This document shows, one piece after another, positions 1 to 17,320 of a DNA stretch of 17,320 nucleotides (its first letter is position 1; each line of letters starts with the position of its first letter). The translations under genes and the position numbers were made by a program. Below the pieces are notes generated by a model. The model saw only the letters and a list, made by a program, of their open reading frames with translations, did not search any database and had not been told where the DNA came from. The stretch spans positions 1-17,320 of the IMG/VR virus record IMGVR_UViG_2563366829_000011, one strand, 5' to 3'. The DNA comes from a virus. Lineage: Duplodnaviria; Heunggongvirae; Uroviricota; Caudoviricetes.

Positions 1-147
1 ATCATCAGTGTGACGACTGCGGCGGCCATCCATCCAGTCATCGGTTCGTCTGAGAATGACGTGCAACTGCGCACGCGACACCCGGAGACAACGGCTGACT
101 AAGCTTCCCCCCCATCCCCGGGCAATAAGGGCGCGTGCGTTATCCAC
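1..147 (-). CDS. insD: IS2 transposase OrfB (InsD-like), N-terminal part only; continues beyond window start
   Basis: Minus-strand frame from GTG (reverse complement of 145-147) reads [49 protein letters not shown], matching the recalled IS2 OrfB N-terminus. It overlaps the orfA 3' end in the -1 frame. Confidence 0.6.
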
Positions 148-470
148 TTTTTTGCCCGTCCATATTCAACGGCTTCTTTGAGGAGTTCATTTTCCATCGT
201 TTTCTTGCCGAGCAGGCGCTGGAGTTCTTTAATCTGCTTCATGGCGGCAGCAAGTTCAGAGGCAGGAACAACCTGTTCTCCGGCGGCGACAGCAGTAAGA
301 CTTCCTTCCTGGTATTGCTTACGCCAGAGAAATAACTGGCTGGCTGCTACACCATGTTGCCGGGCAACGAGGGAGACCGTCATCCCTGGTTCAAAGCTCT
401 GCTGAACAATTGCGATCTTTTCCTGTGTGGTACGCCGTCTGCGTTTCTCCGGTCCTAAGACATCAATCAT
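99..470 (-). CDS. insC: IS2 OrfA (InsC-like HTH protein), 123 aa
   Basis: Protein [54 protein letters not shown]... recognised as IS2 OrfA. The ORF track extends upstream into the inverted repeat; the ATG at 468-470 (minus) matches the canonical start. Confidence 0.85.
147..153 (-). other. Putative programmed -1 ribosomal frameshift slippery site (AAAAAAG on minus strand) joining IS2 orfA to orfB
   Basis: Minus-strand sequence GGCAAAAAAGTGGATA lies at the orfA/orfB overlap. IS3-family elements use A6G slippery heptamers (established knowledge). Confidence 0.5.
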
Positions 471-561
471 CTGCTCTCCAATGACTAGTCTAAAAACTAG
501 TATTAAGACTATCACTTAAATAAGTGATATTGGTTGTCTGGTGATTCAGGGGGCCAGTCTA

Positions 562-1515: not shown

Positions 1516-1702
1516 GAACACCTCCATTATTATTTCCAGTGGTTCGTTTATTCCATCTTTCGAGTGCTTCTTTTTCACTTCCACCATAACCGGTTCGGGA
1601 TTCGCATCCGTTACACTTCGCTCGGTAATATCCTGAAATGGCTTTCACCGTTACTGATGGACAACCACAAAATGGACATGGTTTAACATTGTCATATCTC
1701 AT
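1508..1702 (-). CDS. ralR: Restriction-alleviation protein Lar/RalR, 64 aa, Cys-rich
   Basis: MRYDNVKPCPFCGCPSVTVKAISGYYRAKCNGCESRTGYGGSEKEALERWNKRTTGNNNGGVHV, recognised as Rac Lar/RalR. An alternative upstream ATG at 1714 lacks an SD. Confidence 0.85.
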   Translation of the reverse strand: MRYDNVKPCPFCGCPSVTVKAISGYYRAKCNGCESRTGYGGSEKEALERWNKRTTGNNNGGVHV

Positions 1703-1730
1703 AATTTTTCTCATAAAAAATATTTCAAGT

Positions 1731-1751
1731 TGGCGGTGCATTACACCGCCA
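1731..1751 (-). other. Stem-loop (8 bp stem TGGCGGTG/CACCGCCA, 5 nt loop) between recT stop and ralR start
   Basis: Seen directly. On the minus-strand transcript it follows the recT stop codon and is followed about 13 nt later by a U6 run. Confidence 0.4.
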
Positions 1752-1758
1752 GGCTGAA

Positions 1759-2568
1759 TTATTCCTCTGAATTATCGATTACACTGTATTCCCCGGTTAA
1801 TACAGAGGAATCTGCAGGATCGATTGTCAGTGGTTCCTTTTCATCCATTGATACTGCACGCTGGATCTCAATTGATACGGGCAGATATTTGAACAGGCGA
1901 CGAATAGCCGTTTTCTTTGCCATTTCTTCCCAGTGAGTTACCCACGGCCCGTTATTACCAGCTTTACTCAGGCTGCGCACCAGCTCAATCTGTTTGCGCG
2001 TCATAACTTCAAACTGAGTACCTCCGTCTTTCAGTCTTGCGACAGCATAGACGTGGGTAACCGGGGCATCTTCGTTTTCTCCCGGGCGGTGTATTAACTT
2101 TTCATCAAGGCCAAATTCGAAGCTAAACTCGTCACCTTCACGGACAACACGGGCTGACAGGCTGGCGATTTGACCAGAACGGCGAGCCAGATCAATCATG
2201 CCGCGATAGCCAATGATTAGCTGAACGTTCTTTTTACCGCTCTTTTCGTTTTTATTACCAAAAGGCAGTAAATATGCATGACCGAGGGCGCTACCTGGCT
2301 CAAGTCCGAGCTGTGAACACTGTACGATCGCACTGACAAAACTCATAGTGTCACAGTTTCCTAACGCCGGAACTTTACGAATTTCTGTAGTGGCGATACG
2401 GATCATACGTTCAGCCGTCATATGGCGTGGAAGAGCTGCTGCCAGTTGCTCTTTCATTGATGGCTGGTTAATAAAACTAATCACGTCGCTATTTTTAACT
2501 GCTGCTGGTGCACGGTTTCCCTGAGTTTTTTGCAGATCGGCTTTTGCGATTGGTGGTTGCTTAGTCAT
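1759..2568 (-). CDS. recT: RecT single-strand annealing recombinase, 269 aa
   Basis: [66 protein letters not shown]... matches RecT. SD AAGGAA lies upstream of the ATG at 2566-2568 (minus). The start overlaps the recE stop by 8 nt. Confidence 0.95.
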
Positions 2569-5161
2569 TTGCATATTCCTTAGCCCAGCGGGGCAGTGAT
2601 AATGTCTTAATAGCTGGCCATTCATCGGTATTCAGGCAGTCAGACAGGGTTCGCAGATTGCGGTGATATTCCTGTTGACCTGCCAGTTTTGCTTCTTCGC
2701 CCATCATGAAAATTTCAACCGGATAACGTCCGCATTCAATAGTTGTGCTGGCAACCAGAAAAACGAAAGTTGGCTGCACTCCAAACAGTGCTTCATAACC
2801 GTCACTGTAGAATGCATCCTGAACGTGATAGCGGTAGTCGTAATAAGCGGTTTTGAATCGTTGAATATCCGCCGTAGTTTTCACGTCCATGATCCAGTGA
2901 AATTCAGGGATAATTTTGTCCGGACGGCACCGACACAAAATTCCTGTTTCAGGATCTTCCCAGTAAATTGATGATTCAGCGTGTCCGGCGCTTTCAACAA
3001 GCCATTGCCCCAGCGGCAAAGCCATAACGCTTTGATACATGAGTTCAATTTTCCGGCCTTCTTCCGCAGTGATAACCGTTTTTCCTGTGCTTGCGCATTC
3101 CATCAGAAACGCTTTCTCTTCTTCTTTTCCGGCGTTTGTACGGCGGTTAAATTCAGGTGCTACGATAAAGCGGTTACTGAATTCTTCCGGTTCAAGTACC
3201 CGGCAGTGGAAAGCAGTTCCTAAATCGAGCGTTTTTGTCTTTGTGGTGTCCACGGGGGCATTTTTACGCCACAAATATAGTGCCGGAGTATCAGCAATGT
3301 CATCGAGCTGAGACTTACTGATACCGGGACCCGCGTGGTAATTCTCATTCGAAATTCCGTAATAAATACCTGGCTCTATGTCTTCTACGATTACGGGATC
3401 TGCGACTTCGCCAGTTTCATCACTGCAATCGTGATGCGGATCGCTGCCAGCATTCTCATTGTGCGGATGTTCAGCGCCTTCCATTTCCTCCGGATCATTT
3501 TCCTTAGCTTCAACCTGACTCTCTTCATCGAATGTTTCCTGGTATGTTGCGTCGCCCATCACCGCACCACAGTCAGGGCAGTTATCCCCGCCAGTCTGGC
3601 CGCAGGCATTGCAGGCTATTTCCGGTTCCTGTTGCACTACTGGCTCAGGTTGATTCATATCTGGGCTGGTTTTTTCCGTTTCTGGCTGGTTCTGGTACAC
3701 ACAATCGCGAGTCTGGATCCCCTTTACCCATTTCGGATCGTTCGGGTCGCTAATTCCGTCAACAAATTCACCACGTGATGCAGCAAGCAATTTATCGGCA
3801 TCGACAGGATTTTTTGATGGAATGTTTTTCCGGGCTTCATGGAGTTCTGCCCGCAGTTCCTGATATTTCGCATCAACAGAATTTACCTGTGACTGAGCAT
3901 CCAGCGGCTGCGTGTCCTGATGATGTTCAGTTGCGTCCGGTTCCATTGTTTCAGCCTCTCCCTGTTCAACTGCCGTTGTTCCAGATGGTTGCGGTTTTTC
4001 TTCATCATCCTGTTTTCCTTCTTCTGTTACTCGCTGCGGCATCGGGGCAGAGGAGCGACCGCAGGCAATATCCACGATTTCCGGATCAGGGTTGGCATGA
4101 TCGGTTTCAGTCAGTACTTTGTTCAGATATTCAGTGACGTGCGCGGGGATGACCTCGATCCCAATTGGTGCTTCTTTTACGGACGCAACCACGATGGCGC
4201 GGGAATAATCCAGCCCGCCAGGCATGGTGATGAATTTGTCGCGGAAAACAGAAAAGGGCGGTTTATTTTCAGCGATAATTTCCTCAATGCGTTTAGCGTG
4301 TGCCGGATGAAGGTTATAGATGTCCAGATCCATTGAACGGGCCAGTACGCCAGTGGCTACGTCGCGCGCCAGTGACGTCAGATCGTGTACGAAACCTTCG
4401 CCGCGATCGGTGAGGTTTCCGCCGCCAGCATTAGCACCGGAAGCCGTGCGAGTGATGTGTGAAACACGATTACCCTTCATCCACTCTTTTGTCAGCAGTC
4501 CTCGATCGGTGTAGTCAGCGTTCAGGTATGCTTCGAAAAAAGCAGTTATCAGTCCCAGGTTTGAATTACCAGGATTAGGGAAAACTTTGTCAGTGTCACG
4601 AACCAGTTTGTGGAGTTCGCGAATTTCCAGCGGGTCGAGCAGGCTGGTTTTGTGGGAAACAGCCAGGGCAGTAACAGCCGGTAGTTCTTCAGCCCGAGCA
4701 ATGTGTAATGCCTGGAGTCCGTCGCGTGAAACGTGCGTTACCGGTTTTTCGCTGCCGTGTTGAGCAAGCCAACGAATGGGCAGTTCCTGGCCAGAAATTG
4801 GGAGTAGCATATTCTCCTCAATCTCAGTCATGTCTTCGCCGTTGACGTTGGTATTGCCTTGATAATGAGCGTTGTCTGGTGCTGCTCCCGGTTTTAGTTC
4901 CCATGTCATGGAGTCTTTGCTGAGTTGATAGCGTTCACTCCAGGTAAAATCGATCTCACCTTCAGCGGGCAGGTCATTAACGACAGGAAAATTCGTGGCA
5001 ACAGCTTTAAAATAGCTGCTCAGTTTTTTACCTGACTTAACGATCAGGTAGTCCAGAGTGGCACAGGTCGATTCAAAATCGTTGCTTGCCCACAGGACGA
5101 CGTCAGGTTCACCGGATGATTTTTTCGCTTTCCGTAACAGGAAGAGTGGTTTTGTGCTCAT
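2561..5161 (-). CDS. recE: RecE exonuclease VIII, 866 aa
   Basis: 866 aa [49 protein letters not shown]... recognised as full-length RecE. SD GAGG lies upstream. Confidence 0.95.
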
Positions 5162-5232
5162 TGTTTTTTAACCTCAACTCAGATTAAAATTCGTTTTGTT
5201 CAGTGAATGATCTTGCCGGATACACACTGTTC

Positions 5233-5263
5233 ATAGCCTGCGCCATACGCAGGCTATTTCTTT
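5233..5263 (+). other. Hairpin (10 bp stem ATAGCCTGCG/CGCAGGCTAT, loop CCATA) followed by a T-rich tract on the plus strand, in the racC-recE spacer
   Basis: Seen directly at 5233-5257, followed by TTCTTTC. In the plus orientation it looks like an intrinsic terminator; on the minus (gene) strand it is a stable stem immediately after the racC stop with no U tract. Confidence 0.4.
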
Positions 5264-5538
5264 CAGATTTCACCTTTTAATTTCATTGCAATTAGAGTTG
5301 CCAGAAATTCGGCTTTTTTTTCTGCGGGCAGATTCTTTCCGATATGCACCAGGCACATTTTTTTGACACCTTCATCAAGTGTTTTTACGTTGCCTGATGG
5401 ACCATCGATATCAACCACAGTGAATGGGGTTTCTTTATTTTCTGTTTTAATTACGTAGCCAATGCGCTTTCCTTCCAGATTCACCTCGTGAACAATGTCA
5501 TCGGTAGTTACAACAGTGGCTTCATAATTGGTAATCAT
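5263..5538 (-). CDS. racC: RacC, 91 aa
   Basis: MITNYEATVVTTDDIVHEVNLEGKRIGYVIKTENKETPFTVVDIDGPSGNVKTLDEGVKKMCLVHIGKNLPAEKKAEFLATLIAMKLKGEI. SD AGGAG precedes the ATG at 5536-5538 (minus). Confidence 0.85.
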   Translation of the reverse strand: MITNYEATVVTTDDIVHEVNLEGKRIGYVIKTENKETPFTVVDIDGPSGNVKTLDEGVKKMCLVHIGKNLPAEKKAEFLATLIAMKLKGEI

Positions 5539-5612
5539 GTTTTTCTCCTTAATTAAGGTTGAGCGAATACCTGCCATTTCTGGCATAAATTCAGTTTCGA
5601 ATAGTCAATTAA

Positions 5613-5783
5613 TTAAAGTTCATGTGCCATCTGGTCTTTTTCGGCACAAGCTTCACTGCAATATTTTCTCGGTTCGTCTTTTGATAAAATCCCGTGCATG
5701 AAGTGAAGCATTCTTTCAATAGCTTTGCTTTCTTCAACGTCTTTTTTGCAAAGGTGGTAAGCACATTTTGTTTTCTTAGTCAT
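5613..5783 (-). CDS. ydaE: YdaE-like small Cys-rich (zinc-binding type) protein, 56 aa
   Basis: Below the ORF-track size cutoff. Minus-strand translation [62 protein letters not shown] upstream; the start overlaps the kilR stop (TGATG). Confidence 0.8.
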   Translation of the reverse strand: MTKKTKCAYHLCKKDVEESKAIERMLHFMHGILSKDEPRKYCSEACAEKDQMAHEL

Positions 5784-6004
5784 CACCATGACTCCGCCTT
5801 TACAGGTAAACCATCACAACCGAGGAAGACTTTAATCATGCGGTCAGTAATGCATGTTTTTGTGGTCAGGTTACGAATATATAGTTTTCGCTTTTTAATA
5901 TTGTTTGCCGAGGCAATATATGTCCGGCCTTCATGAAGAACATAATCGCCAGGAGTCACACACTGACGTGGTATTTCATCAGTTCCGAAGTGATGTGCAA
6001 TCAT
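5783..6004 (-). CDS. kilR: KilR, Rac cell-division inhibitor, 73 aa
   Basis: [79 protein letters not shown] lies 6 nt upstream of the ATG at 6002-6004 (minus); the ORF-track start at 6016 has no SD. Confidence 0.85.
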
Positions 6005-6176
6005 AATTATCTCCATTTTTACAAATGAACTTTGTTGATGCGGTGTCTGGTGCCTCCAGGTGACTGCAACCAGTTAACAATTACAGTCGGCTTTCCCACC
6101 CAAACCAATAAGGACTAACATGACTTTTAACTGTGCCACGTGCGCTTAGCCGCATTCACCGCATCACAAAATTCAC

Positions 6177-6227
6177 TTTAAAAAGGGCGGACATCAGCCG
6201 AACTTCAAGAAAAAAACTGATGCCGCC
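6177..6227 (-). terminator. Candidate intrinsic terminator for leftward transcription upstream of kilR: 11 bp stem with one bulge, 19 nt loop, then U5 on the minus strand
   Basis: Arms GGCGGACATCAG (6186-6197) and CTGATGCCGCC (6217-6227). Minus-strand RNA after the stem reads CUUUUUAAAG. The long loop weakens the call. Confidence 0.3.
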
Positions 6228-6383
6228 AGGACTACACACAGCAATGTCGTTATTTACAACCGGAGGCGCACTCCCACCATTTAAATTTAACAGACAAGAC
6301 CGACTCTTTATGGATATCGGAAATGCGCCTTCGTGTTGTGCCCGGTTTTATTTCACCACCTCCGGGCTTCGGTGGTCTCGGCT

Positions 6384-6430
6384 ATACCCCTACAGCGAGA
6401 GCTTGTGTTAACATTTCAATACCCTTACAG
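6384..6430 (+). promoter_or_regulatory. Direct repeat ATACCC(C/T)TACAG x2 (6384-6395 and 6419-6430) immediately upstream of sieB; possible promoter or operator
   Basis: Seen directly, 11 of 12 identical, 35 bp apart, ending 16 bp before the sieB ATG. A TTGTGT -35-like hexamer lies between the copies. Confidence 0.3.
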
Positions 6431-6445
6431 TTGAGAGTTATTGAT

Positions 6446-6934
6446 ATGTTGGATGTATTTACTCCATTGTTGAAACTTTTTGCTAACGAGCCACTCGAAA
6501 GACTTATGTATACGATTATCATTTTTGGTCTCACTCTCTGGCTGATACCGAAAGAGTTTGCTGTCGCATTCAATGCTTATACTGAAATACCCTGGCTCTT
6601 TCAGATTATCGTTTTTGCCTTTTCTTTCGTGGTCGCTATTTCCTTCTCAAGATTGCGAGCACATATTCAAAAGCATTATTCATTGCTACCAGAGCAACGA
6701 GTATTGCTTCGTTTATCTGAGAAAGAAATCGCTGTATTTAAAGATTTCCTTAAAACAGGAAATCTTATTATCACTTCTCCTTGCCGTAACCCGGTTATGA
6801 AAAAATTAGAACGGAAGGGCATCATTCAACATCAGAGTGATAGCGCAAACTGTTCTTATTATCTCGTCACCGAAAAATACTCCCACTTTATGAAGTTATT
6901 CTGGAACAGCAGGAGCAGGCGTTTTAATCGTTAG
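6446..6934 (+). CDS. sieB: SieB superinfection-exclusion protein, 162 aa, predicted membrane protein
   Basis: MLDVFTPLLKLFANEPLERLMYTIIIFGLTLWLIPKEFAVAFNAYTEIPWLFQIIVFAFSFVVAISFS... with hydrophobic segments. SD GAGAG lies upstream of the ATG at 6446. The ORF-track start at 6323 was rejected. Confidence 0.85.
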   Translation: MLDVFTPLLKLFANEPLERLMYTIIIFGLTLWLIPKEFAVAFNAYTEIPWLFQIIVFAFSFVVAISFSRLRAHIQKHYSLLPEQRVLLRLSEKEIAVFKDFLKTGNLIITSPCRNPVMKKLERKGIIQHQSDSANCSYYLVTEKYSHFMKLFWNSRSRRFNR

Positions 6935-7086
6935 CTTACTGTGTGCTTCTCCAACCATCGTCGTGCGCCAGCTTCGGTTTTAAACGTTTTGCTTTTGGTA
7001 TACGTCATGGCAGTGAACGTTCCATCCTGGTTGGGGAACACGCCGCACACCAGGGATTCGTTATTGCCGAGGTCGATTTTTTGCAT
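6931..7086 (-). CDS. ydaF: YdaF-like small protein, 51 aa
   Basis: Below the ORF-track cutoff. Minus-strand translation MQKIDLGNNESLVCGVFPNQDGTFTAMTYTKSKTFKTEAGARRWLEKHTVS. SD GAGGTG upstream. Confidence 0.75.
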   Translation of the reverse strand: MQKIDLGNNESLVCGVFPNQDGTFTAMTYTKSKTFKTEAGARRWLEKHTVS

Positions 7087-7096
7087 TTTTCGCACC

Positions 7097-7231
7097 TCAC
7101 ATCTTGTTGTTGCGGATAGAGGCTTCTGCCTGCCAGAGATCCCAGTCGTTGCTGCGTAGAGCCTGTACAGCCTGGCTGTAAGTGATATCGCAACAATCCA
7201 TCAAATACTGAACTACTTCGTAATGCACCAT
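7097..7231 (-). CDS. ydaG: YdaG-like small protein, 44 aa
   Basis: MVHYEVVQYLMDCCDITYSQAVQALRSNDWDLWQAEASIRNNKM. SD GGGGAGAG lies upstream of the ATG at 7229-7231 (minus). Confidence 0.75.
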   Translation of the reverse strand: MVHYEVVQYLMDCCDITYSQAVQALRSNDWDLWQAEASIRNNKM

Positions 7232-7404
7232 CTTATCTCTCCCCTTAACGCCGGGTGGCGGAACTGAAACCTGCTGCACTGCAAAATCTGAACCCTGCCG
7301 TCATGTTCATACGCCTCGGGCTGGCTACTTAACCCCTGACCACTGCCTGGTAACTCGAAGTATTGCCCTGCGTTCTGTGGGGCGGGGTGGGTTGGTAGGT
7401 ATAT

Positions 7405-7446
7405 GATGTACTTTGTGTTCATTGATGTAAAGTACTTTAAGTACAT
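7405..7446. promoter_or_regulatory. Operator-like cluster downstream of racR and upstream of ydaG: ATGTACT at 7406, AAGTACT at 7430 (24 bp later), and a 13 bp palindrome GTACTTTAAGTAC at 7432-7444
   Basis: Seen directly. The same ATGTACT 7-mer pair with 24 bp spacing recurs in the racR-ydaS spacer. The position corresponds to the pL/oL region of a lambdoid immunity region (inference). Confidence 0.4.
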
Positions 7447-7521
7447 TTTGTGTGTAAAAAAATGAGATGGGATAAAGTGAAGCACAAACCCGGAGGGGGG
7501 AGCTACCGGATTTATGCTGGT

Positions 7522-7941
7522 TTAAGAGGCTTTTTGTTTTTTCTTTCGTGCTAACTCTTCGTAAATTGCATTGTACTTCTGTTTTTTCTCCTCAAGAGTT
7601 TTTAAAAGTTCATCTGTCTCACTGTCAGGGAGCTCGTCCAGAAGGTCAATGATGATTTTTTGTCTTGGATTTAACTCCTGATAGAAACGTACCTGTCCAC
7701 TTTCTTCTGTATCCTCTCCCAAAAGATAGGTTGGTGTTGTTCCAATGAGTGTTGCTAATTCCCTTAATTTCTCTCGGCGAGGAATTGTTTCGCCATTAAA
7801 CCATTTGCTAACCGCTTTTGGTGTTAATTTCATTCGACGGGCAATTTCTGCCTGCCTTCCATGTTGTTCATAACCAGCGTTTTCACAGGCTAGCGCAAGC
7901 CTACTGGCGAACTCTTTACGCGCTTTATCTTCATGAACCAT
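7522..7941 (-). CDS. racR: RacR prophage repressor (HTH, cI-like), 139 aa in this frame
   Basis: MVHEDKARKEFASRLALACENAGYEQHGRQAEIARRMKLTPKAVSKWFNGETIPRREKLRELATLIGTTPTYLLGEDTEE... An HTH lies in the N-terminal half. Divergent from ydaS. Confidence 0.9.
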   Translation of the reverse strand: MVHEDKARKEFASRLALACENAGYEQHGRQAEIARRMKLTPKAVSKWFNGETIPRREKLRELATLIGTTPTYLLGEDTEESGQVRFYQELNPRQKIIIDLLDELPDSETDELLKTLEEKKQKYNAIYEELARKKKQKAS

Positions 7942-8020
7942 AAGTTCAATGATATTCGCTCTTGAATGTACTGTCAGTTCTGTTATACCATGTACTCAAA
8001 GTTCACATTGTGAGGGTGAT
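7942..8020. promoter_or_regulatory. racR-ydaS divergent promoter/operator region with two ATGTACT motifs (7966-7972, 7990-7996) 24 bp apart
   Basis: Predicted minus-strand promoter CTGACA (7972-7977), 17 bp spacer, TATCAT (7949-7954), ending 7 nt before the racR ATG. Predicted plus-strand promoter TTGAAT (7962-7967), 16 bp spacer, TATACC (7984-7989) toward ydaS. SD GAGGG precedes ydaS. Hexamers identified by eye. Confidence 0.5.
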
Positions 8021-8275
8021 ATGAACCAGAAAACACTTGAAGATGTAATCAAAACTGTTCGCGTTTCTGTTGTGGCCGACGTTTGTGGTGTCAGCCAAAG
8101 AGCAATCTACAAATGGATGGATAACGGAAAATTGCCTCGCACAGAATATACCGGCGAAACAAATTACGCTGAAAAAATCGCTCATGCATCAAACGGATTA
8201 TTTTCTGCCGATGTAATTTTAACTATTGGCAGAAATAAAACTACTACGAAAAAGCTGATGGGAGTTGATTCATGA
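8021..8275 (+). CDS. ydaS: YdaS (Cro/HTH-like small protein), 84 aa from the SD-supported start
   Basis: MNQKTLEDVIKTVRVSVVADVCGVSQRAIYKWMDNGKLPRTEYTGETNYAEKIAHASNGLFSADVILTIGRNKTTTKKLMGVDS. SD GAGGG lies 7 nt upstream of the ATG at 8021. The upstream in-frame ATG at 7949 lacks an SD and lies in the operator region. Confidence 0.8.
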   Translation: MNQKTLEDVIKTVRVSVVADVCGVSQRAIYKWMDNGKLPRTEYTGETNYAEKIAHASNGLFSADVILTIGRNKTTTKKLMGVDS

Positions 8276-8694
8276 AAATCAAGCATGAGCACATCGAGTC
8301 AGTGTTGTTAGCCCTGGCAGCCGAAAAAGGGCAGGCATGGGTAGCCAATGCCATTACTGAAGAATATCTGCGCCAGGGGGGCGGCGAATTGCCCCTGGTA
8401 CCAGGCAAGGACTGGAATAATCAGCAGAACATCTATCACCGTTGGTTAAAAGGTGAAACGGAAGCGCAAAGGGAAAAAATTCAGAAACTGATCCCTGCAA
8501 TTCTGGCAATCCTTCCGCGCGAGCTGCGTCACCGACTCTGCATCTTCGATACCCTGGAACGCCGTGCATTACTGGCGGCGCAGGAAGCGTTAAGTACGGC
8601 AATTGATGCGCATGATGATGCAGTCCAGGCCGTTTACCGGAAAGCGCATTTCAGCGGCGGCGGGTCTTCCGACGATTCTGTCATTGTTCATTAA
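8272..8694 (+). CDS. ydaT: YdaT, 140 aa
   Basis: MKIKHEHIESVLLALAAEKGQAWVANAITEEYLRQGGGELPLVPGKDWNNQQNIYHRWLKGETEAQREKIQKLIPAILAILPRELRHRLCIFDTLERR... The start overlaps the ydaS stop (ATGA). Confidence 0.85.
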   Translation: MKIKHEHIESVLLALAAEKGQAWVANAITEEYLRQGGGELPLVPGKDWNNQQNIYHRWLKGETEAQREKIQKLIPAILAILPRELRHRLCIFDTLERRALLAAQEALSTAIDAHDDAVQAVYRKAHFSGGGSSDDSVIVH

Positions 8695-8706
8695 GCAAAA
8701 GTTTCC

Positions 8707-8917
8707 ATGCTGTTTGTGCTTATTCTAAGCAACCGGGCAGCATCATACGGGGCAATTATGGCCGCATTACCATACATGCAACTGTACATAGCTGATTATC
8801 TGGCTGACACCATGCATTTGTCAGCAGAGGAGCATGGTGCGTATTTGTTGCTGATGTTCAATTACTGGCAAACAGGAAAGCCAATACCTAAAAACAGGCT
8901 GGCAAAAATTGCCCGTC
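8707..8917 (+). pseudogene. ydaU: YdaU-like (DUF1376-type) gene, 5' fragment only, interrupted by IS629 at 8918
   Basis: ...[52 protein letters not shown] then continues into IS629-derived codons. The true start may be the ATG at 8758. Confidence 0.65.
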
Positions 8918-8971
8918 TGAACCGCCCCGGGAATCCTGGAGACTAAACTTCCTGAGAAAGAGGTAAACAGG

Positions 8972-9298
8972 ATGACTAAAAATACTCGTTTTTCCCCCGA
9001 AGTCCGTCAACGGGCAGTCCGTATGGTTCTGGAAAGTCAGAGCGAATATGACTCACAATGGGCGACAATTTGTTCCATTGCTCCAAAGATTGGCTGTACG
9101 CCGGAGACTCTGCGTGTCTGGGTTCGCCAGCATGAGCGGGATACCGGGGGCGGTGATGGAGGGCTCACCACCGCTGAACGTCAGCGTCTGAAAGAGCTGG
9201 AACGTGAAAATCGTGAACTGCGCCGCAGTAACGATATCCTTCGCCAGGCTTCCGCTTATTTTGCGAAGGCGGAGTTCGACCGCCTCTGGAAAAAATGA
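8972..9298 (+). CDS. IS629 transposase OrfA (HTH), 108 aa
   Basis: [61 protein letters not shown]... recognised as IS629/IS3-family OrfA. Confidence 0.9.
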
Positions 9299-10185
9299 TG
9301 CCACTGCTGGATAAGCTGCGTGAGCAGTACGGGGTCGGACCGCTATGCAGCGAACTGCATATTGCCCCGTCAACGTATTACCACTGTCAGCAACAGCGAC
9401 ATCATCCGGATAAACGCAGTGCCCGTGCGCAGCTCGATGACTGGCTGAAGAAAGAGATACAGCGCGTATACGATGAAAATCACAAGGTATACGGTGTGCG
9501 TAAAGTCTGGCGTCAGTTGTTACGGGAAGGTATCAGAGTGGCCAGATGCACTGTGGCACGTCTCATGGCGGTTATGGGACTTGCCGGTGTTCTCCGGGGT
9601 AAAAAGGTCCGTACGACCATCAGCCGGAAAGCCGTTGCCGCAGGCGACCGCGTAAACCGTCAGTTCGTGGCAGAACGACCTGACCAGCTGTGGGTGGCTG
9701 ATTTTACTTACGTCAGCACATGGCGGGGCTTCGTCTATGTGGCGTTCATCATTGATGTGTTTGCCGGATACATCGTGGGGTGGCGGGTCTCATCGTCCAT
9801 GGAAACGACATTCGTGCTGGATGCACTGGAGCAGGCGTTATGGGCCCGTCGACCGTCCGGCACGGTCCATCACAGTGATAAAGGTTCTCAGTATGTATCG
9901 CTGGCCTACACACAGCGGCTTAAGGAAGCCGGATTACTGGCATCAACAGGAAGTACAGGCGACTCGTATGACAACGCGATGGCGGAGAGCATCAATGGTC
10001 TTTACAAAGCGGAGGTAATACACCGTAAGAGCTGGAAAAACCGTGCAGAAGTGGAACTGGCCACACTCACGTGGGTGGACTGGTATAACAATCGACGATT
10101 GCTGGAAAGGCTGGGCCATACTCCTCCGGCAGAAGCAGAAAAAGCTTATTATGCTTCCATCGGAAACGATGATCTGGCAGCCTGA
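9295..10185 (+). CDS. IS629 transposase OrfB (DDE/RNase H-fold catalytic domain), 296 aa
   Basis: [37 protein letters not shown]...[34 protein letters not shown]...[10 protein letters not shown]...[15 protein letters not shown], a typical IS3-family integrase core. Confidence 0.9.
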
Positions 10186-10227
10186 GTTCACAGATAAAAC
10201 ACTCTCCAGGAAACCCGGGGCGGTTCA

Positions 10228-12072
10228 ATTGCGACTTATAACCAGATTAAGGCGCTACAGGATGAAGGGAACCAGCAGGAGGCCGCCCGCATTGCGACAG
10301 AAGCATACTCATCCTCAATGATCCAGCGCACCAACCAGATTAAAGAAAATCTTGGTTATCTTGAGACTGCATGGAAAGCTGTCGCAGACTCCGCAAAATG
10401 GGCATGGGATTCCATGCTGGATATTGGCCGTGAGGCCTCCCTTGATCAAAAAATCTCAGATGTTCTCCGTCAAATTGATGAAATAGAAAAAAATACCCGC
10501 CCCGGAGTTTTCGGGTTAGGTGGCATTGGAGATGGCGGAGCTCAAAATAAAAGGCTGGCACGATTAAAGCAGCAATTGGGCGTACTTCAAGCAGAAAAAA
10601 TTGCTCAGGACGTACTAAATTCATCAATAAACGATTACAACAAGCGACAACAGGAAGGAATTGAACTCAGACAGAGAGCAGATGCCTTTTCAAAACAATA
10701 TCAGACCCGGGAGCAGCAGAGAGCTAGTGAACTTGCAAAACTGGAAAAACTAAAGAGTCAGTATTCAAAGGAAGAATATAATAATCTTATCGCTCAAATA
10801 AATGAGCGTTATAAAGATCCAAAGCAACCAAAGGCGAAAGGTTATTCGGATGATGCTGCCCAACGAATGATTGATCATCTGAATCAACAGAATGCGTTAC
10901 TAAGTTCACAAACTGAATTAACCGTTAAATTAAGTTCCTCTGAACAGGAACTGGTTAAGTGGCGTCAGCAGATTGCCGACCTGGAGTCACGACCGTCATC
11001 GAAATTAACCAAGGATCAGAAATCGCTTCTCTTACACCGGGAAGAAATAACCGCGTTGATGGAGAAAAATGTTGCGATTGAAAAAAATAACAGGCTAATC
11101 AAGGAATCCGCCGAAATAGCTGCATGGCGTGATTCATTGCAGGCTTCGATTGATAATCGTCAACAGGGGTATGATATTCAGATTGCTGGTTATGGGGTTG
11201 GCGATAAAAATCAGCAACGCCAGCAGGAATTACTGCGGATTGAACGTGAATATAACAATCAGCGTCTGCAACTTGAACGTGACTATGCAGATAAATCCCG
11301 TGGGATGTCAAATCATGTTTTTCAGGAGAAAATGCAGGCTCTGAATGATGCTCTGGAACGAGAAAAAGAAATTGTCAGACAGAAAAACGAGCAGCTCGAT
11401 ATTCAGGCAGGAGACTGGGTTAGTGGTGCCTCCCAGGGATTCAATAACTGGCTGGATGACACTAAGGATATCAGTGAGCAGATAAAATCAACCACGACTC
11501 AGATGTTTGATGGAATGACCGATGCGCTGGGTGATTTTGTCACGACAGGCAAAGCAAATTTTCGTTCTTTCGCTACTTCCGTGATTTCGGATCTTAGTCG
11601 AATAGCATTAAAGGCTTCAATTACTGGGATTTTCGACAGCATTAGTAACAGTTCTTCTGGGGGGATTTTAGGAACTATCGGGAGTGCTATTAGTAAATTT
11701 ATTCCGAATGCAAAGGGCGGTGTTTATGAGTCTCCGTCATTGAACACGTATTCGAACGGTATTTATGATTCCCCGCAATTTTTTGCTTTTGCAAGAGGGG
11801 CTGGTGTTTTTGGTGAGGCTGGTCCGGAAGCCATTATGCCATTAACACGAACTTCCGATGGTTCTCTTGGTGTCAGAGCTGTTAATAGTAAAAGTGGTAA
11901 TGGAGGCGGAGATATTACCTATGCCCCTGTATACCAAATCACTATTCAAAATGACGGCCAGAATGGAGAGATTGGCCCTCAGGCAATAAAAGCACTTATG
12001 GGGATGGTTGATCAGCGGGTGCAGGGCAATCTGTTAAATATGCGACGTGATGGGGGAATGTTAAGTGGCTAA
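10228..12072 (+). pseudogene. Lambda H-like tail tape-measure protein, 5'-truncated by IS629; C-terminal about 614 codons retained
   Basis: The frame is open from inside the IS629 end through 12072. Product is Q/E/K-rich and coiled-coil-like with a Gly-rich C-terminus (FAFARGAGVFGEAGPEAIMPLTR...). Identified by position immediately upstream of M-L-K-I-J homologues. Confidence 0.8.
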
Positions 12073-12403
12073 TACGGAAGAATTTCACTGGTTACCAGAG
12101 GATGGAATGAAAACAGAAAATAAACCATCGATAAAAACTGTAAGATTTGGCGATGGTTATGAGCAACGAAGTCCAAATGGACTTAATCATTCTCTGCGCG
12201 TTTTCACCTGTGATTTCAAAGTTGAGGCGAATGAACGTGATTCATTTGAAAAATTTTTAGCCCGGCATGAAGGCTATAAATCTTTTTTTTGGCGCCCGCC
12301 GGGTATTAACAGAAAAATCAGAGTGGTGTGTCGAACGTGGTCAGCGACAGAACATATCACCTATACCGATTTTTCGTGTCAGTTTGACGAAGTGGTGATC
12401 TGA
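12065..12403 (+). CDS. Lambda M-like minor tail protein, 112 aa, GTG start
   Basis: ...KTVRFGDGYEQRSPNGLNHSLRVFTCDFKVEANERDSFEKFLARHEGYKSFFWRPPG... resembles lambda gpM (recalled motif VRFGDGY). SD GGGGGAA upstream; overlaps the tape-measure stop. Confidence 0.85.
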   Translation: MANTEEFHWLPEDGMKTENKPSIKTVRFGDGYEQRSPNGLNHSLRVFTCDFKVEANERDSFEKFLARHEGYKSFFWRPPGINRKIRVVCRTWSATEHITYTDFSCQFDEVVI

Positions 12404-13101
12404 TGCAGGACATACAACAGGAAACGCTGAATGAATGCATTCGTGCGGAGCAGTCGGCCAGCGTGGTGCTCTGGGAAATCGACCTGACCGAGGTAGGCGG
12501 GGATCGCTACTTTTTCTGTAATGAGCAGAACGAAAAAGGTGAGTCTGTCACCTGGCAGAGTCGGCAGTATCAGGCCTATCCCATTCAGGGGAGTGGATTT
12601 GAGATGAACGGCAAGGGCAGTGCTGCCCGTCCGACACTGGCGGTCTCTAACCTGCACGGCATGATCACCGGGATGGCGGAAGATCTGCAGAGTCTGGTCG
12701 GCGGAACGGTGGTCCGGCGTAAGGTTTACGCCCGCTTTCTGGATGCGGTGAACTTCGTCAACGGAAACAGCGAAGCCGATCCGGAGCAGGAGGTGATCAG
12801 CCGCTGGCGCATCGAGCAGTGCAGCGAACTGAGCGCGGTCAGTGCCTCTTTTGTACTGTCCACGCCGACTGAAACGGATGGCGCTGTTTTTCCGGGACGT
12901 ATCATGCTGGCCAACACCTGCACCTGGACCTATCGCGGCGATGAGTGCGGTTATAGCGGTCCGGCGGTCGCGGATGAATATGACCAGCCGACGTCCGATA
13001 TCACGAAGGATAAATGCAGCAAATGCCTGAGTGGCTGTAAGTTTCGCAATAATGTCGGCAACTTTGGCAGCTTCCTTTCCATTAACAAACTTTCGCAGTA
13101 A
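12403..13101 (+). CDS. Lambda L-like minor tail protein, 232 aa
   Basis: MQDIQQETLNECIRAEQSASVVLWEIDLTEVGGDRYFFCNEQNEKGESVTWQ... ...CSKCLSGCKFRNNVGNFGSFLSINKLSQ closely matches lambda gpL as recalled. The start overlaps the M stop (TGATG). Confidence 0.9.
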   Translation: MQDIQQETLNECIRAEQSASVVLWEIDLTEVGGDRYFFCNEQNEKGESVTWQSRQYQAYPIQGSGFEMNGKGSAARPTLAVSNLHGMITGMAEDLQSLVGGTVVRRKVYARFLDAVNFVNGNSEADPEQEVISRWRIEQCSELSAVSASFVLSTPTETDGAVFPGRIMLANTCTWTYRGDECGYSGPAVADEYDQPTSDITKDKCSKCLSGCKFRNNVGNFGSFLSINKLSQ

Positions 13102-13106
13102 ATCCC

Positions 13107-13850
13107 ATGACAGAGACAGAATCAGCGATTCTGGCGCACGCCCGGCGATGTGCGCCAGCGGAGTCGTGCGGCTTCGTGGTGAGAACGCCGGAGGAGGAAA
13201 GATATTTTCCCTGCGTGAATATCTCCGGTGAGCCGGAGGAGTATTTCCGGATGTCGCCGGAGGACTGGCTGAGTGCAGAAATGCAGGGAGAGATTGTGGC
13301 GCTGGTCCACAGCCACCCCGGTGGTCTGCCCTGGCTGAGTGAGGCCGACCGGCGGCTGCAGGTACAGAGTGATTTGCCGTGGTGGCTGGTCTGCCGGGGG
13401 GCGATTCATAAATTCCGCTGTGTGCCGCATCTCACCGGGCGGCGCTTTGAGCACGGGGTAACGGACTGTTACACGCTGTTCCGGGACGCTTACCATCTGG
13501 CGGGAATTGAGATGCCGGATTTTCATCGCGGGGATGACTGGTGGCGTAACGGTCAGAATCTCTATCTGGATAATCTGGAGGCCACAGGGCTGTATCAGGT
13601 GCCGTTGTCAGCGGCGCAGCCGGGCGATGTGCTGCTGTGCTGTTTTGGTTCATCGGTGCCGAATCATGCCGCCATTTACTGTGGTGACAGCGAGCTGCTG
13701 CACCATATTCCTGAACAACTGAGCAAACGAGAGAGGTACACCGACAAATGGCAGCGACGCACACACTCCCTCTGGCGTCACCGGGCATGGCACGCATCTG
13801 CCTTTACGGGGATTTACAACGATTTGGCCGCCGCATCGACCTTCGAGTGA
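13107..13850 (+). CDS. Lambda K-like tail assembly protein with JAMM/MPN and NlpC/P60-like motifs, 247 aa from the first ATG
   Basis: JAMM signature HSHPGGLPWLSEAD (H-x-H-x7-S-x2-D) and a downstream Cys/His region (GVTDCYTLF ... NHAAIY) are visible. The 3' end overlaps gene I by 103 nt, as in lambda. An alternative start at 13251 would give the 199 aa lambda-size product. Confidence 0.85.
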   Translation: MTETESAILAHARRCAPAESCGFVVRTPEEERYFPCVNISGEPEEYFRMSPEDWLSAEMQGEIVALVHSHPGGLPWLSEADRRLQVQSDLPWWLVCRGAIHKFRCVPHLTGRRFEHGVTDCYTLFRDAYHLAGIEMPDFHRGDDWWRNGQNLYLDNLEATGLYQVPLSAAQPGDVLLCCFGSSVPNHAAIYCGDSELLHHIPEQLSKRERYTDKWQRRTHSLWRHRAWHASAFTGIYNDLAAASTFE

Positions 13851-14389
13851 AAACGGGGTCCGAAGCCATCCGGGCGCTGGCCATGCAGATCCCGGCATTT
13901 CGTCAGAAACTGAGCGACGGCTGGTACCAGGTACGCATTGCCGGGCGTGATGCAGGTGAAACCGAATTGTCTGCCCGTCTTAATGAGCCGCTGGAAAATG
14001 GTGCCGTGATCCATATCGTGCCGCGTCTGGCAGGAGCCAAAAGTGGCGGTGTGTTTCAGGCTGTGCTGGGGGCGGCTGTTATGGCGGTTGCTATATGGAT
14101 GCCGGGGGTAGGAATTATGGCGAGTAATCTGCTGTTTTCTCTCGGTGCCAGTATGACGCTTGGCGGTGTTGCACAGATGCTGGCCCCTAAACCCAAAACC
14201 CCCCGCACACAGACAACGGATAACGGCAAACAGAACACCTATTTTTCTTCACTGGATAACATGGTTGCCCAGGGCAATGTTCTGCCGGTTCTGTACGGTG
14301 AAATGCGCGTGGGGTCACGCGTGGTTTCTCAGGAGATCAGCACGGCAGACGAAGGGGATGGTGGTCAGGTTGTGGTGATTGGTCGCTGA
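13748..14389 (+). CDS. Lambda I-like tail assembly protein, 213 aa
   Basis: MAATHTLPLASPGMARICLYGDLQRFGRRIDLRVKTGSEAIRALAMQIPAFRQKLSDGWYQVRIAGRD... ...YGEMRVGSRVVSQEISTADEGDGGQVVVIGR matches lambda gpI as recalled. Confidence 0.85.
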   Translation: MAATHTLPLASPGMARICLYGDLQRFGRRIDLRVKTGSEAIRALAMQIPAFRQKLSDGWYQVRIAGRDAGETELSARLNEPLENGAVIHIVPRLAGAKSGGVFQAVLGAAVMAVAIWMPGVGIMASNLLFSLGASMTLGGVAQMLAPKPKTPRTQTTDNGKQNTYFSSLDNMVAQGNVLPVLYGEMRVGSRVVSQEISTADEGDGGQVVVIGR

Positions 14390-14407
14390 TGCAAAATGTT
14401 TTATGTG

Positions 14408-14430
14408 AAACCGCCTCCGGGCGGTTTTAT
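14408..14430 (+). terminator. GC-rich hairpin (AAACCGCC-TCCG-GGCGGTTT) with a short T tract, between genes I and J
   Basis: Seen directly at 14408-14427, followed by TAT. SD GGAG for J follows at 14438-14441. May be a weak terminator, attenuator or mRNA stability element. Confidence 0.45.
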
Positions 14431-14449
14431 CGTTTATGGAGCATGACGA

Positions 14450-17113
14450 ATGGGTAAAGGCAGCAGTAAGGGGCATACCCCGCGCGAAGCGAAGGACAAC
14501 CTGAAGTCCACGCAGCTGCTGAGTGTGATCGATGCCATCAGCGAAGGGCCGGTTGAAGGTCCGGTGGATGGATTAAAAAGCGTGCTGCTGAACAGTACGC
14601 CGGTGCTGGACAGTGAGGGGAATACCAATATATCCGGCGTCACGGTGGTGTTCCGGGCCGGTGAGCAGGAGCAGACACCGCCGGAGGGATTTGAATCCTC
14701 CGGCTCCGAGACGGTGCTGGGTACGGAAGTGAAGTACGACACGCCGATTACCCGGACCATCACGTCGGCAAACATCGACCGTCTGCGCTTTACCTTCGGT
14801 GTGCAGGCACTGGTGGAAACCACCTCAAAGGGGGACCGGAATCCGTCGGAAGTCCGCCTGCTGGTTCAGATACAGCGTAATGGTGGCTGGGTGACGGAAA
14901 AAGACATCACCATTAAAGGCAAAACCACCTCACAGTATCTGGCATCGGTGGTGGTGGGTGACCTGCCGCCGCGTCCGTTCAATATCCGGATGCGCAGGAT
15001 GACGCCGGACAGCACCACAGACCAGCTGCAGAACAAAACGCTCTGGTCGTCATACACCGAAATCATCGATGTGAAACAGTGCTACCCGAACACGGCACTG
15101 GTCGGCGTACAGGTGGATTCGGAGCAGTTCGGCAGCCAGCAGGTGAGCCGTAATTATCATCTGCGCGGGCGTATTCTGCAGGTGCCGTCGAACTATAACC
15201 CGCAGACTCGGCAATACAGCGGTATCTGGGACGGAACGTTTAAGCCAGCATACAGCAATAACATGGCCTGGTGTCTGTGGGATATGCTGACCCATCCACG
15301 CTACGGCATGGGGAAACGTCTTGGTGCGGCGGATGTGGACAAATGGGCGCTGTATGTCATCGGCCAGTACTGCGACCAGTCAGTGCCGGACGGCTTTGGC
15401 GGCACGGAGCCGCGCATCACCTGTAATGCGTACCTGACCACACAGCGCAAGGCGTGGGATGTGCTCAGTGATTTTTGCTCGGCGATGCGCTGTATGCCGG
15501 TATGGAACGGGCAGACGCTGACGTTCGTGCAGGACCGACCGTCAGATAAGGTGTGGACCTATAACCGCAGTAATGTGGTGATGCCGGATGATGGCGCGCC
15601 GTTCCGCTACAGCTTCAGCGCCCTGAAGGACCGCCATAATGCCGTTGAGGTGAACTGGATTGACCCGGATAACGGCTGGGAGACGGCGACAGAGCTTGTT
15701 GAAGATACGCAGGCCATTGCCCGTTACGGTCGTAACGTCACGAAGATGGATGCCTTTGGCTGTACCAGCCGGGGGCAGGCACACCGCGCCGGGCTGTGGC
15801 TGATTAAAACGGAGCTGCTGGAAACGCAGACCGTGGACTTCAGCGTGGGCGCAGAAGGGCTTCGCCATGTACCGGGCGATGTCATTGAAATCTGTGATGA
15901 TGACTATGCGGGTATCAGCATCGGCGGGCGCGTGCTGGCGGTGAACAGCCAGACGCGGACGCTGACGCTCGACCGTGAAATCACGCTGCCATCCTCCGGC
16001 ATCACGCTGATAAGCCTGGTTGACGGACAGGGGAATCCGGTCAGCGTGGAGGTTCAGTCCGTCACCGACGGCGTGAAGGTAAAAGTGAGCCGTGTTCCTG
16101 GCGGTGTTGCTGAATACAGCGTATGGGGGCTGAAGCTGCCGACGCTGCGCCAGCGACTGTTCCGCTGCGTGAGTATCCGTGAGAACGACGACGGCACGTA
16201 TGCCATCACCGCCGTGCAGCATGTGCCGGAGAAAGAGGCCATCGTGGATAACGGGGCGCACTTTGACGGCGAACAGAGTGGCACGGTGAATGGTGTCACG
16301 CCGCCAGCGGTGCAGCACCTGACCGCAGAAGTCACTGCAGACAGCGGGGAATATCAGGTGCTGGCGCGATGGGACACGCCGAAGGTGGTGAAGGGCGTGA
16401 GCTTCCTGCTTCGCCTGACCGTGGCAGCGGATGACGGCAGTGAGCGGCTGGTCAGCACGGCCCGGACGACGGAAACCACATACCGCTTCACGCAACTGGC
16501 GCTGGGAAACTACAGGCTGACAGTCCGGGCGGCAAATGCCTGGGGGCAGCAGGGCGATCCGGCATCGGTATCGTTCCGTATTGCCGCACCGGCAGCGCCG
16601 TCGCGGATTGAGCTGACGCCGGGCTATTTTCAGATAACCGCCACGCCGTATCTTGCCGTTTATGATCCGACGGTACAGTTTGAGTTCTGGTTCTCGGAAA
16701 AGCGGATTGCGGATATCAGGCAGGTTGAAACCACAGCCCGCTATCTTGGCACGGCGCTGTACTGGATAGCTGCCAGTATCAATATCAAGCCGGGCCATGA
16801 TTATTATTTTTACATCCGCAGTGTGAACACCGTTGGCAAATCGGCATTCGTGGAGGCTGTTGGCCAGCCGAGTGATGATGCATCCGGCTATCTGGATTTT
16901 TTCAAAGGAGAGATAGGGAAAACCCATCTGGCTCAGGAGTTGTGGACGCAGATTGATAACGGTCAGCTTGCGCCTGACCTGGCGGAAATCAGAACGTCCA
17001 TCACGGATGTCAGTAATGAAATCACGCAGACCGTCAATAAGAAACTGGAAGACCAGAGTGCAGCGATCCAGCAGATACAGAAGGTTCAGGTTGATACAAA
17101 TAATAACCTGAAC
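14450..17113 (+). pseudogene. Lambda J-like central tail fibre/host-specificity protein, N-terminal about 888 codons; C-terminal receptor-binding part removed by IS2
   Basis: [58 protein letters not shown]... is typical of gpJ. The frame runs into the IS2 end at 17114, giving the IS-derived tail SRLAP then stop. Confidence 0.9.
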
Positions 17114-17320
17114 AGTAGACTGGCCCCCTGAATCACCAGACAACCAATATCACTTATTTAAGTGATAGTCTTAATACTAGTTTTTAGACTAGTCATTGGA
17201 GAGCAGATGATTGATGTCTTAGGACCGGAGAAACGCAGACGGCGTACCACACAGGAAAAGATCGCAATTGTTCAGCAGAGCTTTGAACCAGGGATGACGG
17301 TCTCCCTCGTTGCCCGGCAA
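17114..17320 (+). mobile_element. IS2 insertion sequence, right copy, partial (runs off window end); inverted relative to the left copy
   Basis: TAGACTGGCCCCCTGAATCACCAGACAACCAATATCACTTATTTAAGTGATAGTC... is identical to the reverse complement of 355-561. Confidence 0.9.
17206..17320 (+). CDS. insC: IS2 OrfA (InsC-like), 5' part only; continues beyond window end
   Basis: ATG at 17206; [38 protein letters not shown]... Confidence 0.8.

Follow-up and report, generated by a model that had tools for sequence, protein, structure and literature searches.

A complete IS629 copy at the joint of a probable internal deletion in a Rac-type prophage of Escherichia coli

The Rac prophage of Escherichia coli K-12 lies next to ttcA and carries intR, xisR, ralR/RalA, recET, racC, kilR, sieB and ydaS/T/U; it is defective through the loss of structural genes and retains only a remnant of the tape-measure gene. 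All of this recalls the 17,320-nucleotide stretch of viral DNA that we analyzed (the window: positions 1 to 17,320 of IMG/VR virus record IMGVR_UViG_2563366829_000011), a Rac-type prophage beside ttcA that has been struck three times by insertion sequences (ISs), twice by IS2 and once by IS629, the element studied here. K-12 Rac differs from the window in keeping ydaU/ydaV together with lysis remnants and in having lost its head genes through a different deletion. In the window, by contrast, IS629 spans a break that falls inside ydaU, and tail genes M to J have been kept.

IS629 copies without a target-site duplication, and deletions associated with IS629, were reportedly described for E. coli O157:H7 prophages by Ooka and colleagues in 2009; Rump et al. 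2011 (PMC3271280) and Kusumoto et al. 2011 (as summarized in bioRxiv 10.1101/2023.06.07.543989) belong to the same body of work. Among 47 IS629 sites in O157, only 21 had duplications of 3-4 bp and 26 had none, and 62% of the copies lay in prophages (PMC3271280). The window resembles these O157:H7 cases in the element family, the mostly prophage-borne copies, the 3-4 bp length of the duplications when present and the occurrence of deletions that start at the IS (PMC3271280). It differs in its host, a non-O157 human-gut lineage with sitABCD beside the prophage, and in its Shigella-type IS variant. A second point of comparison is provided by IS30 and IS911, whose junctions between inverted repeats (IR-IR junctions), formed in minicircles and tandem dimers, give rise to deletions and inversions and can join the inverted repeats (IRs) of distant copies (PMC9333248). 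It is a documented way for transposase to turn one IS or two distant copies into a single IS between non-contiguous DNA, with no duplication (PMC9333248), which is the end state seen at our locus. The route was, however, shown for IS30 on plasmids and on the K-12 chromosome, dimers and IR targeting are not known for IS629, and IR targeting of the IS30 type gives only direct junctions between the left and right inverted repeats (IRL-IRR) and by itself no flips of orientation.

In the window, a complete IS629 separates the first 211 nt of ydaU from the last 1845 nt of a tape-measure gene of the lambda H type, the arrangement that had been read from the sequence before any database was searched. 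The terminal sequences of the element are TGAACCGCC...GGCGGTTCA, with the ends TGAACC...GGTTCA. Alignments with ten other IS629 copies from related loci all span exactly positions 1-1310, which fixes the ends of the element independently of the inverted repeats. The joint reads ...AAATTGCCCGTC, followed by the IS and then by ATTGCGACTTAT... When the ends were re-examined, no direct repeat of 3 bp or 4 bp was found at the flanks (GTC on the left versus ATT on the right), and the earlier observation that the flanking triplets are not repeated thus holds at the exact, alignment-confirmed ends of the 1310-bp element. In the intact genes of E. coli MS 69-1, ydaU runs ...GCCCGTC and continues as TGACTAACG, and the tape-measure gene runs ...TTTCTGACA and continues as ATTGCGAC. 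The boundaries therefore overlap slightly, since the TGA with which the intact ydaU continues is also how the IS begins (3 nt), and the CA that precedes ATT in the intact tape-measure gene is also how the IS ends (2 nt); moving the boundaries by these bases yields no duplication, and the overlaps are too short to carry much meaning. A 5-nt identity between the two flanks, ATTGC, was considered as a microhomology joint and rejected because both copies are kept in the window and in strain MS 196-1. At the protein level, the ydaU frame enters the IS by 29 nt, adding ten codons, and encodes a 79-aa chimera (open reading frame [ORF] 8707-8946). The tape-measure fragment has only one possible start, an internal ATG at 10318, because in-frame stops lie inside the IS end.

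The element has the hallmarks of the IS3 family, namely the length and inverted-repeat ends together with overlapping orfA (HTH) and orfB (DDE/rve) genes and a frameshift structure, and a programmed frameshift is annotated by RefSeq in identical copies. It is 99.1-99.5% identical to copies on large Shigella flexneri and S. boydii plasmids, about 96% identical to copies that RefSeq names IS1203 family and 94.9% identical to the copies of strain PEC240. In ISfinder, an isoform is recognized at a nucleotide identity of about 95% or more to the reference. The name IS629 appears acceptable, as judged on proxy copies (those of the Shigella plasmids, the RefSeq IS1203 copies and those of PEC240). Rump et al. 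(2011, PMC3271280) distinguish three sub-types of IS629, including a Shigella-like one, with 4-5% divergence between them, and we infer that the window copy is the Shigella-type variant and corresponds to sub-type II of that study rather than to the O157 sub-types I and III. The window copy also carries a private T-for-G substitution at 9434, which changes R47 to L in the HTH_21 region of OrfB and is absent from the copies of SY033, M15 (both copies), MS 196-1 and CEA106S.

What the joint has removed is defined to the base by E. coli MS 69-1, an intact relative with the same prophage at the same locus, which matches the window at 99.85% identity to the left of the joint and at 98.9% to the right. 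There, the window flanks lie 26,928 bp apart, so that a full-length IS629 with intact termini stands in the window between sequences that are non-contiguous in MS 69-1, and the absent DNA extends from ydaU nt 211 to tape-measure nt 1389. The interval begins with the 3′ part of ydaU and with ydaV and a number of DUF genes; an IS5, which is probably private to MS 69-1, a gene for a hok-type toxin and genes of the antitermination region come next. It continues with genes for a holin, a lysozyme and Rz, with trkG, and with genes for terminase, portal, a P22-type capsid and the tail tube followed by ydaY; and it ends with the first 1389 nt of the tape-measure gene. The sequence-only reading had remarked on missing replication, lysis and head modules and had called for an alignment with an intact relative, and this comparison bears it out. 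Overall, the window very probably descends from an intact Rac-type prophage by an internal deletion that IS629 mediated.

A mismatch between two 3-bp flanks is expected by chance in 63 of 64 cases; the informative test is therefore a control set, for which we took the simple IS629 insertions in related loci and the two IS2 copies at the window ends. All seven simple insertions first examined have duplications: the five IS629 insertions in relatives, with 3 bp in four cases (ATC, GTC, CAG and ACC) and 4 bp in one (GGAC), and the two IS2 insertions. A sixth simple IS629 insertion, in the tape-measure gene of WP7-S18-ESBL-09, is flanked by a duplication of GAT. In the window and its relatives, every IS629 copy that bridges non-contiguous genes is without a duplication. 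The missing duplication in the window reflects a later deletion and offers no ground for excluding the element from the IS629 family. With the IS bridging a deletion and the controls duplicated, the suggestion that an adjacent deletion or a recombination between two copies took place, and not a simple insertion, was well founded.

It could be argued that nothing was deleted and that the window displays either a natural mosaic of early and tail genes or an assembly artefact at a repeated IS. Lambdoid prophages are indeed mosaic, IS copies often break or misjoin short-read assemblies, and most contigs that bear the joint end inside the IS. We nevertheless regard this explanation as barely credible. 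The IS termini are the exact points at which both flanking genes are cut in mid-frame; three independent complete genomes, like a draft scaffold of 792 kb, run through the entire IS with identical joints; and the intact arrangement exists in MS 69-1. Moreover, no IS-free fusion of ydaU to the tape-measure gene, whether as an excision scar or as a natural adjacency, occurs among 5,426 complete E. coli genomes, which, together with the lack of a repeat at the true ends, removes the two observations that would have spoken for an ordinary insertion or a native adjacency.

The class of mechanism is settled, with adjacent deletion by one copy and recombination between two copies being indistinguishable from the sequence. 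Both joints fall exactly at the terminal nucleotides of the IS, which indicates that they were made by transposase, or inherited from joints made by transposase, and did not arise by random breakage. In the scheme that we propose, IS629 would first have inserted canonically at one of two sites, GTC in ydaU or ATT in the tape-measure gene, and the DNA between this resident copy and the other site would then have been lost by an IS-mediated step that left one IS and no duplication. Along the favored route, a second IS629 in the same orientation would have landed at ATT in the tape-measure gene, after which the two copies might have recombined via RecA, or transposase might have joined the IRs of both copies, followed by dimer dissolution. 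The tape-measure gene of related prophages holds IS629 at many different positions in other strains. We lean toward the two-copy route because of these many strikes and because it is the commonest route in bacteria generally, but our preference is tentative, at somewhat less than even odds, a route with a single copy being nearly as likely.

The ydaU site has an independent history as a target. In PEC240, a pig isolate (NZ_CM168014.1; locus L009, 18941-20250), IS629 occupies the same ydaU position in the same orientation, with its right inverted repeat (IRR) joined to GTCTGACTAACG, and ralR lies on the other side. Together, the joint of IRR to GTC and ydaU in PEC240 and the joint in the window reconstitute a 3-bp GTC duplication. 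The PEC240 element is only 94.9% identical to that of the window. We considered it as a recombinant that would link its ydaU joint to that of the window by descent, and rejected this because the mismatches are spread along the whole element; divergence throughout points instead to independent use of the same target by two IS629 variants. The GTC of ydaU is therefore a proven IS629 target, which is not proof that the window copy began there. In NCTC9699 (locus L004, 6005-7314), the tape-measure gene holds a simple insertion that likewise has a duplicated GTC followed by TGA, the triplet with which the IS itself starts, and its 7-mer CGTCTGA is common to the ydaU site (window 8911-8920). After insertion at CGTCTGA, the right joint reads TCA-GTC-TGA, like the IRR-3 bp-IRL junction of an IS circle. 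The common 7-mer may hint at a target preference of IS629, although no such preference was found in O157 (Rump et al., PMC3271280).

Several observations weigh against the two-copy scheme. Either joint may be the older one, and a preferred target could have served as the insertion site or as the deletion endpoint. Precursors were sought with four synthetic junctions (left part of the tape-measure gene joined to IRL or to IRR, and IRR or IRL joined to the right part of ydaU) in the 5,426 complete genomes and with exact patterns in IMG/VR. In neither collection did the left part of the tape-measure gene adjoin an IS629 at ATT in either orientation, and the junction of the IS to GTC and the right part of ydaU was present only in PEC240 among the complete genomes and in no IMG/VR record. 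The 464-aa truncated tape-measure product, sought as two alleles, is absent from a collection of 15 billion proteins, a weak and allele-dependent negative. With no pre-deletion genome found, the second IS copy is hypothetical, and neither a two-copy precursor nor a recombinant IS nor a reciprocal product was detected across the complete genomes, IMG/VR and the protein collection. A single private nucleotide difference is all that distinguishes the IS copies of the lineage, so a crossover inside the IS would leave no visible trace. Finally, strain MS 196-1 (NZ_CP146681.1; locus L002, 12915-14224) has the same flanks and the same IS as the window with the IS inverted; its right joint is base-identical (IRL followed by ATTGCG), and its left flank is 4 bp shorter, ending ...ATTGCC before IRR with CGTC lost. 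This flipped state cannot be produced by homologous recombination and shows that reactions of the transposase type took place at the same joint.

A single resident IS629 might instead have made the deletion directly, with the 26.9 kb leaving as a circle and being lost. A tandem dimer or IR-IR junction formed at this copy would then have attacked ATT, or else GTC, within one molecule; alternatively, the first strand transfer would have been "sloppy" and reached a distant site in place of the other IS end. This possibility, to which we assign appreciable though lesser weight, requires fewer events, and neither the complete genomes nor IMG/VR yielded a case in which the other site is occupied by a second copy. 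IR-IR junctions of copy-out-paste-in elements do give deletions and inversions, and members of the IS3 family form dimers (PMC9333248). A passage in 10.1101/2023.06.07.543989 cites IS629 excision assays that produced more extensive deletions, ascribed to "sloppy" first strand transfer into sequences beyond the second IS end (Kusumoto et al. 2011). The flips, as non-recombinational changes at the joints, show that transposase is active here. Additionally, one IS copy appears to have eroded its surroundings in a sister lineage. WP7-S18-ESBL-09 (locus L025, 9872-11181) has the simple insertion in the tape-measure gene mentioned above, with IS629 on the minus strand, and E28 (locus L010, 20780-22089) has an identical IS that points the same way, but 92 bp of the left flank and 4.1 kb of the right flank are gone, and on the right the IS is joined to J. 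These two likely represent precursor and product, with both flanks eroded and the orientation unchanged. On the other hand, the canonical copy-out step regenerates the donor, and such deletions need an extra, undefined reaction according to a passage by Chandler's group (10.1101/2023.06.07.543989). The product would also be identical to that of recombination between two copies, so the sequence cannot decide between them.

MS 196-1 is not the only case of a flip in this lineage. N10 (locus L023, 20923-22232) has xisR (window 1171) joined to IS629 in the plus orientation and then GGGGCA, and 23CRST038 (locus L024, 12505-13814) has int (window 753) joined to IS629 in the minus orientation and then GGGGCA, with a left flank 418 bp shorter than that of N10. 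The two IS629 copies are identical and have an identical right flank, GGGGCAACC in the tail fibre gene, in opposite orientations. Nearly the whole prophage is gone in both strains, and M15 has a simple IS629 insertion, with a CAG duplication, only 6 bp from the right joint that they have in common. The flips are thus seen in four independent complete assemblies that form two sister pairs. Homologous recombination with third copies was rejected as a source of the flips on logical grounds, since recombination inside the IS keeps every junction between a flank and an IS end; the flips must therefore be transposase-type or end-specific events. Neither the canonical copy-out-paste-in pathway nor the network of reactions known for IS30 allowed us to derive them in a single step. 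One possible route is that an inverted copy inserts exactly against the resident IRR, after which an IRR-IRR junction attacks the opposite flank; another is that inverted IS pairs are alternatively resolved by strand transfer from IRR to a site adjacent to IRL. We speculate, as a rather unlikely generalization, that IS629 at deletion joints can invert in place, with one flank junction kept to the base and some DNA of the opposite flank lost.

The second of these routes leads to a different history for the window itself. An ancestor with IS629 in the plus orientation at GTC in ydaU and in the minus orientation at ATT in the tape-measure gene could have been resolved in alternative ways to give the window and MS 196-1, the IRR of the surviving copy being joined at or near the outer IRL edge of the lost copy (with an offset of 0 bp in the window and 4 bp in MS 196-1). 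One scheme would then explain why ATT adjoins IRR in the window and IRL in MS 196-1 and why the ydaU joints lie 4 bp apart, and the geometry of N10 and 23CRST038, with an identical right flank, opposite orientations and left joints 418 bp apart, fits as well. In such a pair, IRR and the reversed IRL have the same outermost 14 nt as a direct repeat, through which an exact 0-bp joint could arise. Against this, the undeleted ancestor must have persisted until the lineages split, and the same 26.9 kb must then have been lost twice; no such ancestor was found among the complete genomes or in IMG/VR; and, by our own reasoning, an attack of IRR beside the IRL of an inverted copy would not obviously yield a deletion. 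We consider an inverted pair improbable.

Deletions bridged by IS629 are known from at least five other strains with a prophage of this family, namely E28, CEA106S, PEC240, N10 and 23CRST038. A complete IS629 without a duplication likewise stands at the deletion joints of E28 (tape-measure gene to J), CEA106S (tape-measure gene to the DinI region), PEC240 (ralR to ydaU), N10 (xisR to tail fibre) and 23CRST038 (int to tail fibre), and these sister cases differ from the window in their end points and partly in the IS629 variant (94.9-99.9% identical). In CEA106S, IS629 bridges an 11.6-kb loss from the tape-measure gene to the DinI region. An IS91-family element and an IS629 in that strain (locus L005, 4196-8099) also bracket a 978-bp internal fragment of the tape-measure gene in which the ATT site of the window is uninterrupted.

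The base composition around the joint does not behave as had been supposed from the sequence, namely as an AT-richer early region fused to a GC-richer tail cluster. The 500 bp to the left of the IS have a GC of 0.486, and the 500 bp to its right have one of 0.462. By part, it amounts to 0.455 in the ydaU fragment, 0.539 in IS629, 0.437 in the tape-measure fragment (the most AT-rich part nearby) and 0.565 in genes M to J. The step up to 0.565 starts at the gene after the tape-measure fragment, near 12,100-12,250, about 1.8 kb to the right of the joint and within the tail module. The intact tape-measure gene of MS 69-1 has a GC of 0.468 in its 5′ part and 0.436 in its 3′ part, and the GC step, which follows the same pattern there, is native to the prophage. 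The related idea that a Rac-like early region was joined to a lambda-like tail is right in that both types of module are present; however, they already form one intact prophage in MS 69-1, and the joint does not weld two types of phage together.

Among the 5,426 complete genomes, the whole joint is found in SY033 and M15, both from Korea, and MS 196-1, from the USA, is a third complete genome that has it, in the variant form. The draft assembly GCA_000408745.1 contains a 792-kb scaffold that shares 8.2 kb with the window at 100% identity, joint included. The exact 79-aa chimera of the ydaU fragment and the IS occurs in at least 62 blocks of public contigs, including several human-gut metagenomes. 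In metagenome contigs of the Joint Genome Institute (JGI), the right-joint pattern matched one 2.5-kb contig, which is identical to the window, and the left-joint pattern with a gap of 0-4 nt had no match. Genomes of this lineage contain 24-34 IS629 copies each. The joint is real, stable and old enough to have become fixed in a lineage. A 69-aa YdaU fragment is encoded by one Logan contig of 1.6 kb and by eleven contigs from NCBI, which measure 5-10 kb, with 8,350 bp for the longest. Although a 69-aa ORF is what the flipped joint of MS 196-1 would produce, these 12 contigs were rejected as support for it, as they end at ...ATTGCCC or ...ATTGCCCG, so that their proteins are truncated by the contig ends, and match the unflipped sequence. 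Two of them that were read fully (loci L021 and L022) stop at ...AAATTGCCC and ...AAATTGCCCG, 2-3 nt short of the IS boundary, unlike other assemblies, which run k-1 bases into the IS; the early stops may reflect trimming by the assembler or a mixed population at the joint.

Stripped of its replication, lysis and head genes, and with IS2 splitting both int and J, the prophage cannot replicate, lyse, package or excise. What is left is a stable, lineage-wide remnant that keeps recET, kilR, sieB, ralR/RalA, ydaS/T and part of the tail genes. The joint provides a base-exact marker of the lineage for isolates from Korea and the USA, the draft genome and several human-gut metagenomes. Deletion of prophage DNA across an IS629 is an ordinary and already known way of prophage decay, and the window documents a further instance of prophage erosion by IS629, in this case in a lineage other than O157. 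Its importance outside annotation is small and would grow modestly should the flips turn out to be a separate outcome of transposition. The comparative series, which runs from the intact prophage through simple insertions and one- and two-sided losses to the two flips, could be used to test adjacent-deletion and IR-IR models for the IS3 family; its members are natural products, some with known precursors (WP7-S18-ESBL-09 and E28).

Table. Coordinates of the joint, the IS copies and the neighboring prophage features in the window
Feature	Position	Strand	Basis or remark
Complete IS629 (IS3 family), 1310 bp, without target-site duplication	8918..10227	+	Inverted repeats; end-to-end alignments
IRL	8918..8942	+	25-nt imperfect inverted repeat, 92% complementary to IRR
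IRR	10203..10227	+	25-nt imperfect inverted repeat, pairs with IRL
IS629 orfA, 108 aa	8972..9298	+	HTH_Tnp_1
IS629 orfB, 296 aa	9295..10185	+	HTH_21, rve, rve_3
ALIL frameshift-stimulating pseudoknot over the orfA/orfB overlap	9253..9369	+	Rfam RF01497, 120 bits versus gathering score 50
Left flanking triplet GTC	8915..8917	+	End of ydaU fragment
Right flanking triplet ATT	10228..10230	+	Codon 464 of tape-measure gene
ydaU 5′ fragment, 211/858 nt	8707..8917	+	Pfam DUF1376, E=1.7e-17; intact 858-nt gene in MS 69-1
Tape-measure 3′ fragment, last 1845 nt, codons 464-1077 of 3234-nt gene	10228..12072	+	Pfam TMP_4, Tape_meas_lam_C; alignment to intact gene
ydaS-like HTH gene and ydaT, last intact early genes before the joint	7949..8694	+	Pfam HTH_17 (under curated cut-off), YdaT_toxin; RefSeq annotation of identical region
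RalA antitoxin sRNA, full length, opposite ralR	1331-1509		Rfam RF02694, 225 bits
Remainder of tail cluster (M, L, K, I, and J cut by IS2)	12065..17115	+	Phage_min_tail, Phage_tail_L, Prok-JAB/NLPC_P60, Lambda_tail_I; GC 0.565
IS2 copy #1, 3′ part	1..560	-	Splits prophage integrase gene; full copy in collinear SY033 (L001); relatives labelled IS2 family
5-bp target duplication CTTGG of integrase IS2	561-565		Both duplicates present in SY033
5-bp duplication AACAG of gene J IS2	17111-17115		IS2 boundary comparison
IS2 copy #2, 5′ part, inverted versus copy #1	17116..17320	+	Interrupts gene J

The assignment of the window to the Rac type follows from integration next to ttcA and from the region int-xis-ralR/RalA-recT-recE-racC-kilR-sieB-ydaS/T/U, as established from the context of collinear loci, Rfam and Pfam. 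In complete genomes, the prophage adjoins ttcA, the Rac attachment locus, and sitABCD lies on its far side. According to Pfam and to the annotation of identical DNA, the early region contains, in order, xisR, rcbA, ralR/RalA, recT, recE, racC, kilR, sieB, a repressor pair and ydaT; the ydaU fragment and IS629 follow, and then the lambda-like tail genes M, L, K, I and J. The tail module is recognized as lambda-like by its order H (tape measure)-M-L-K-I-J with matching families, J being annotated in relatives. The RalR/RalA toxin-antitoxin pair is intact in the remnant. Both IS2 copies are simple insertions with 5-bp duplications, in int and in J, and both are complete in SY033. The window is thus bracketed by two identical, inverted IS2 copies, and a crossover between them would invert the whole remnant.

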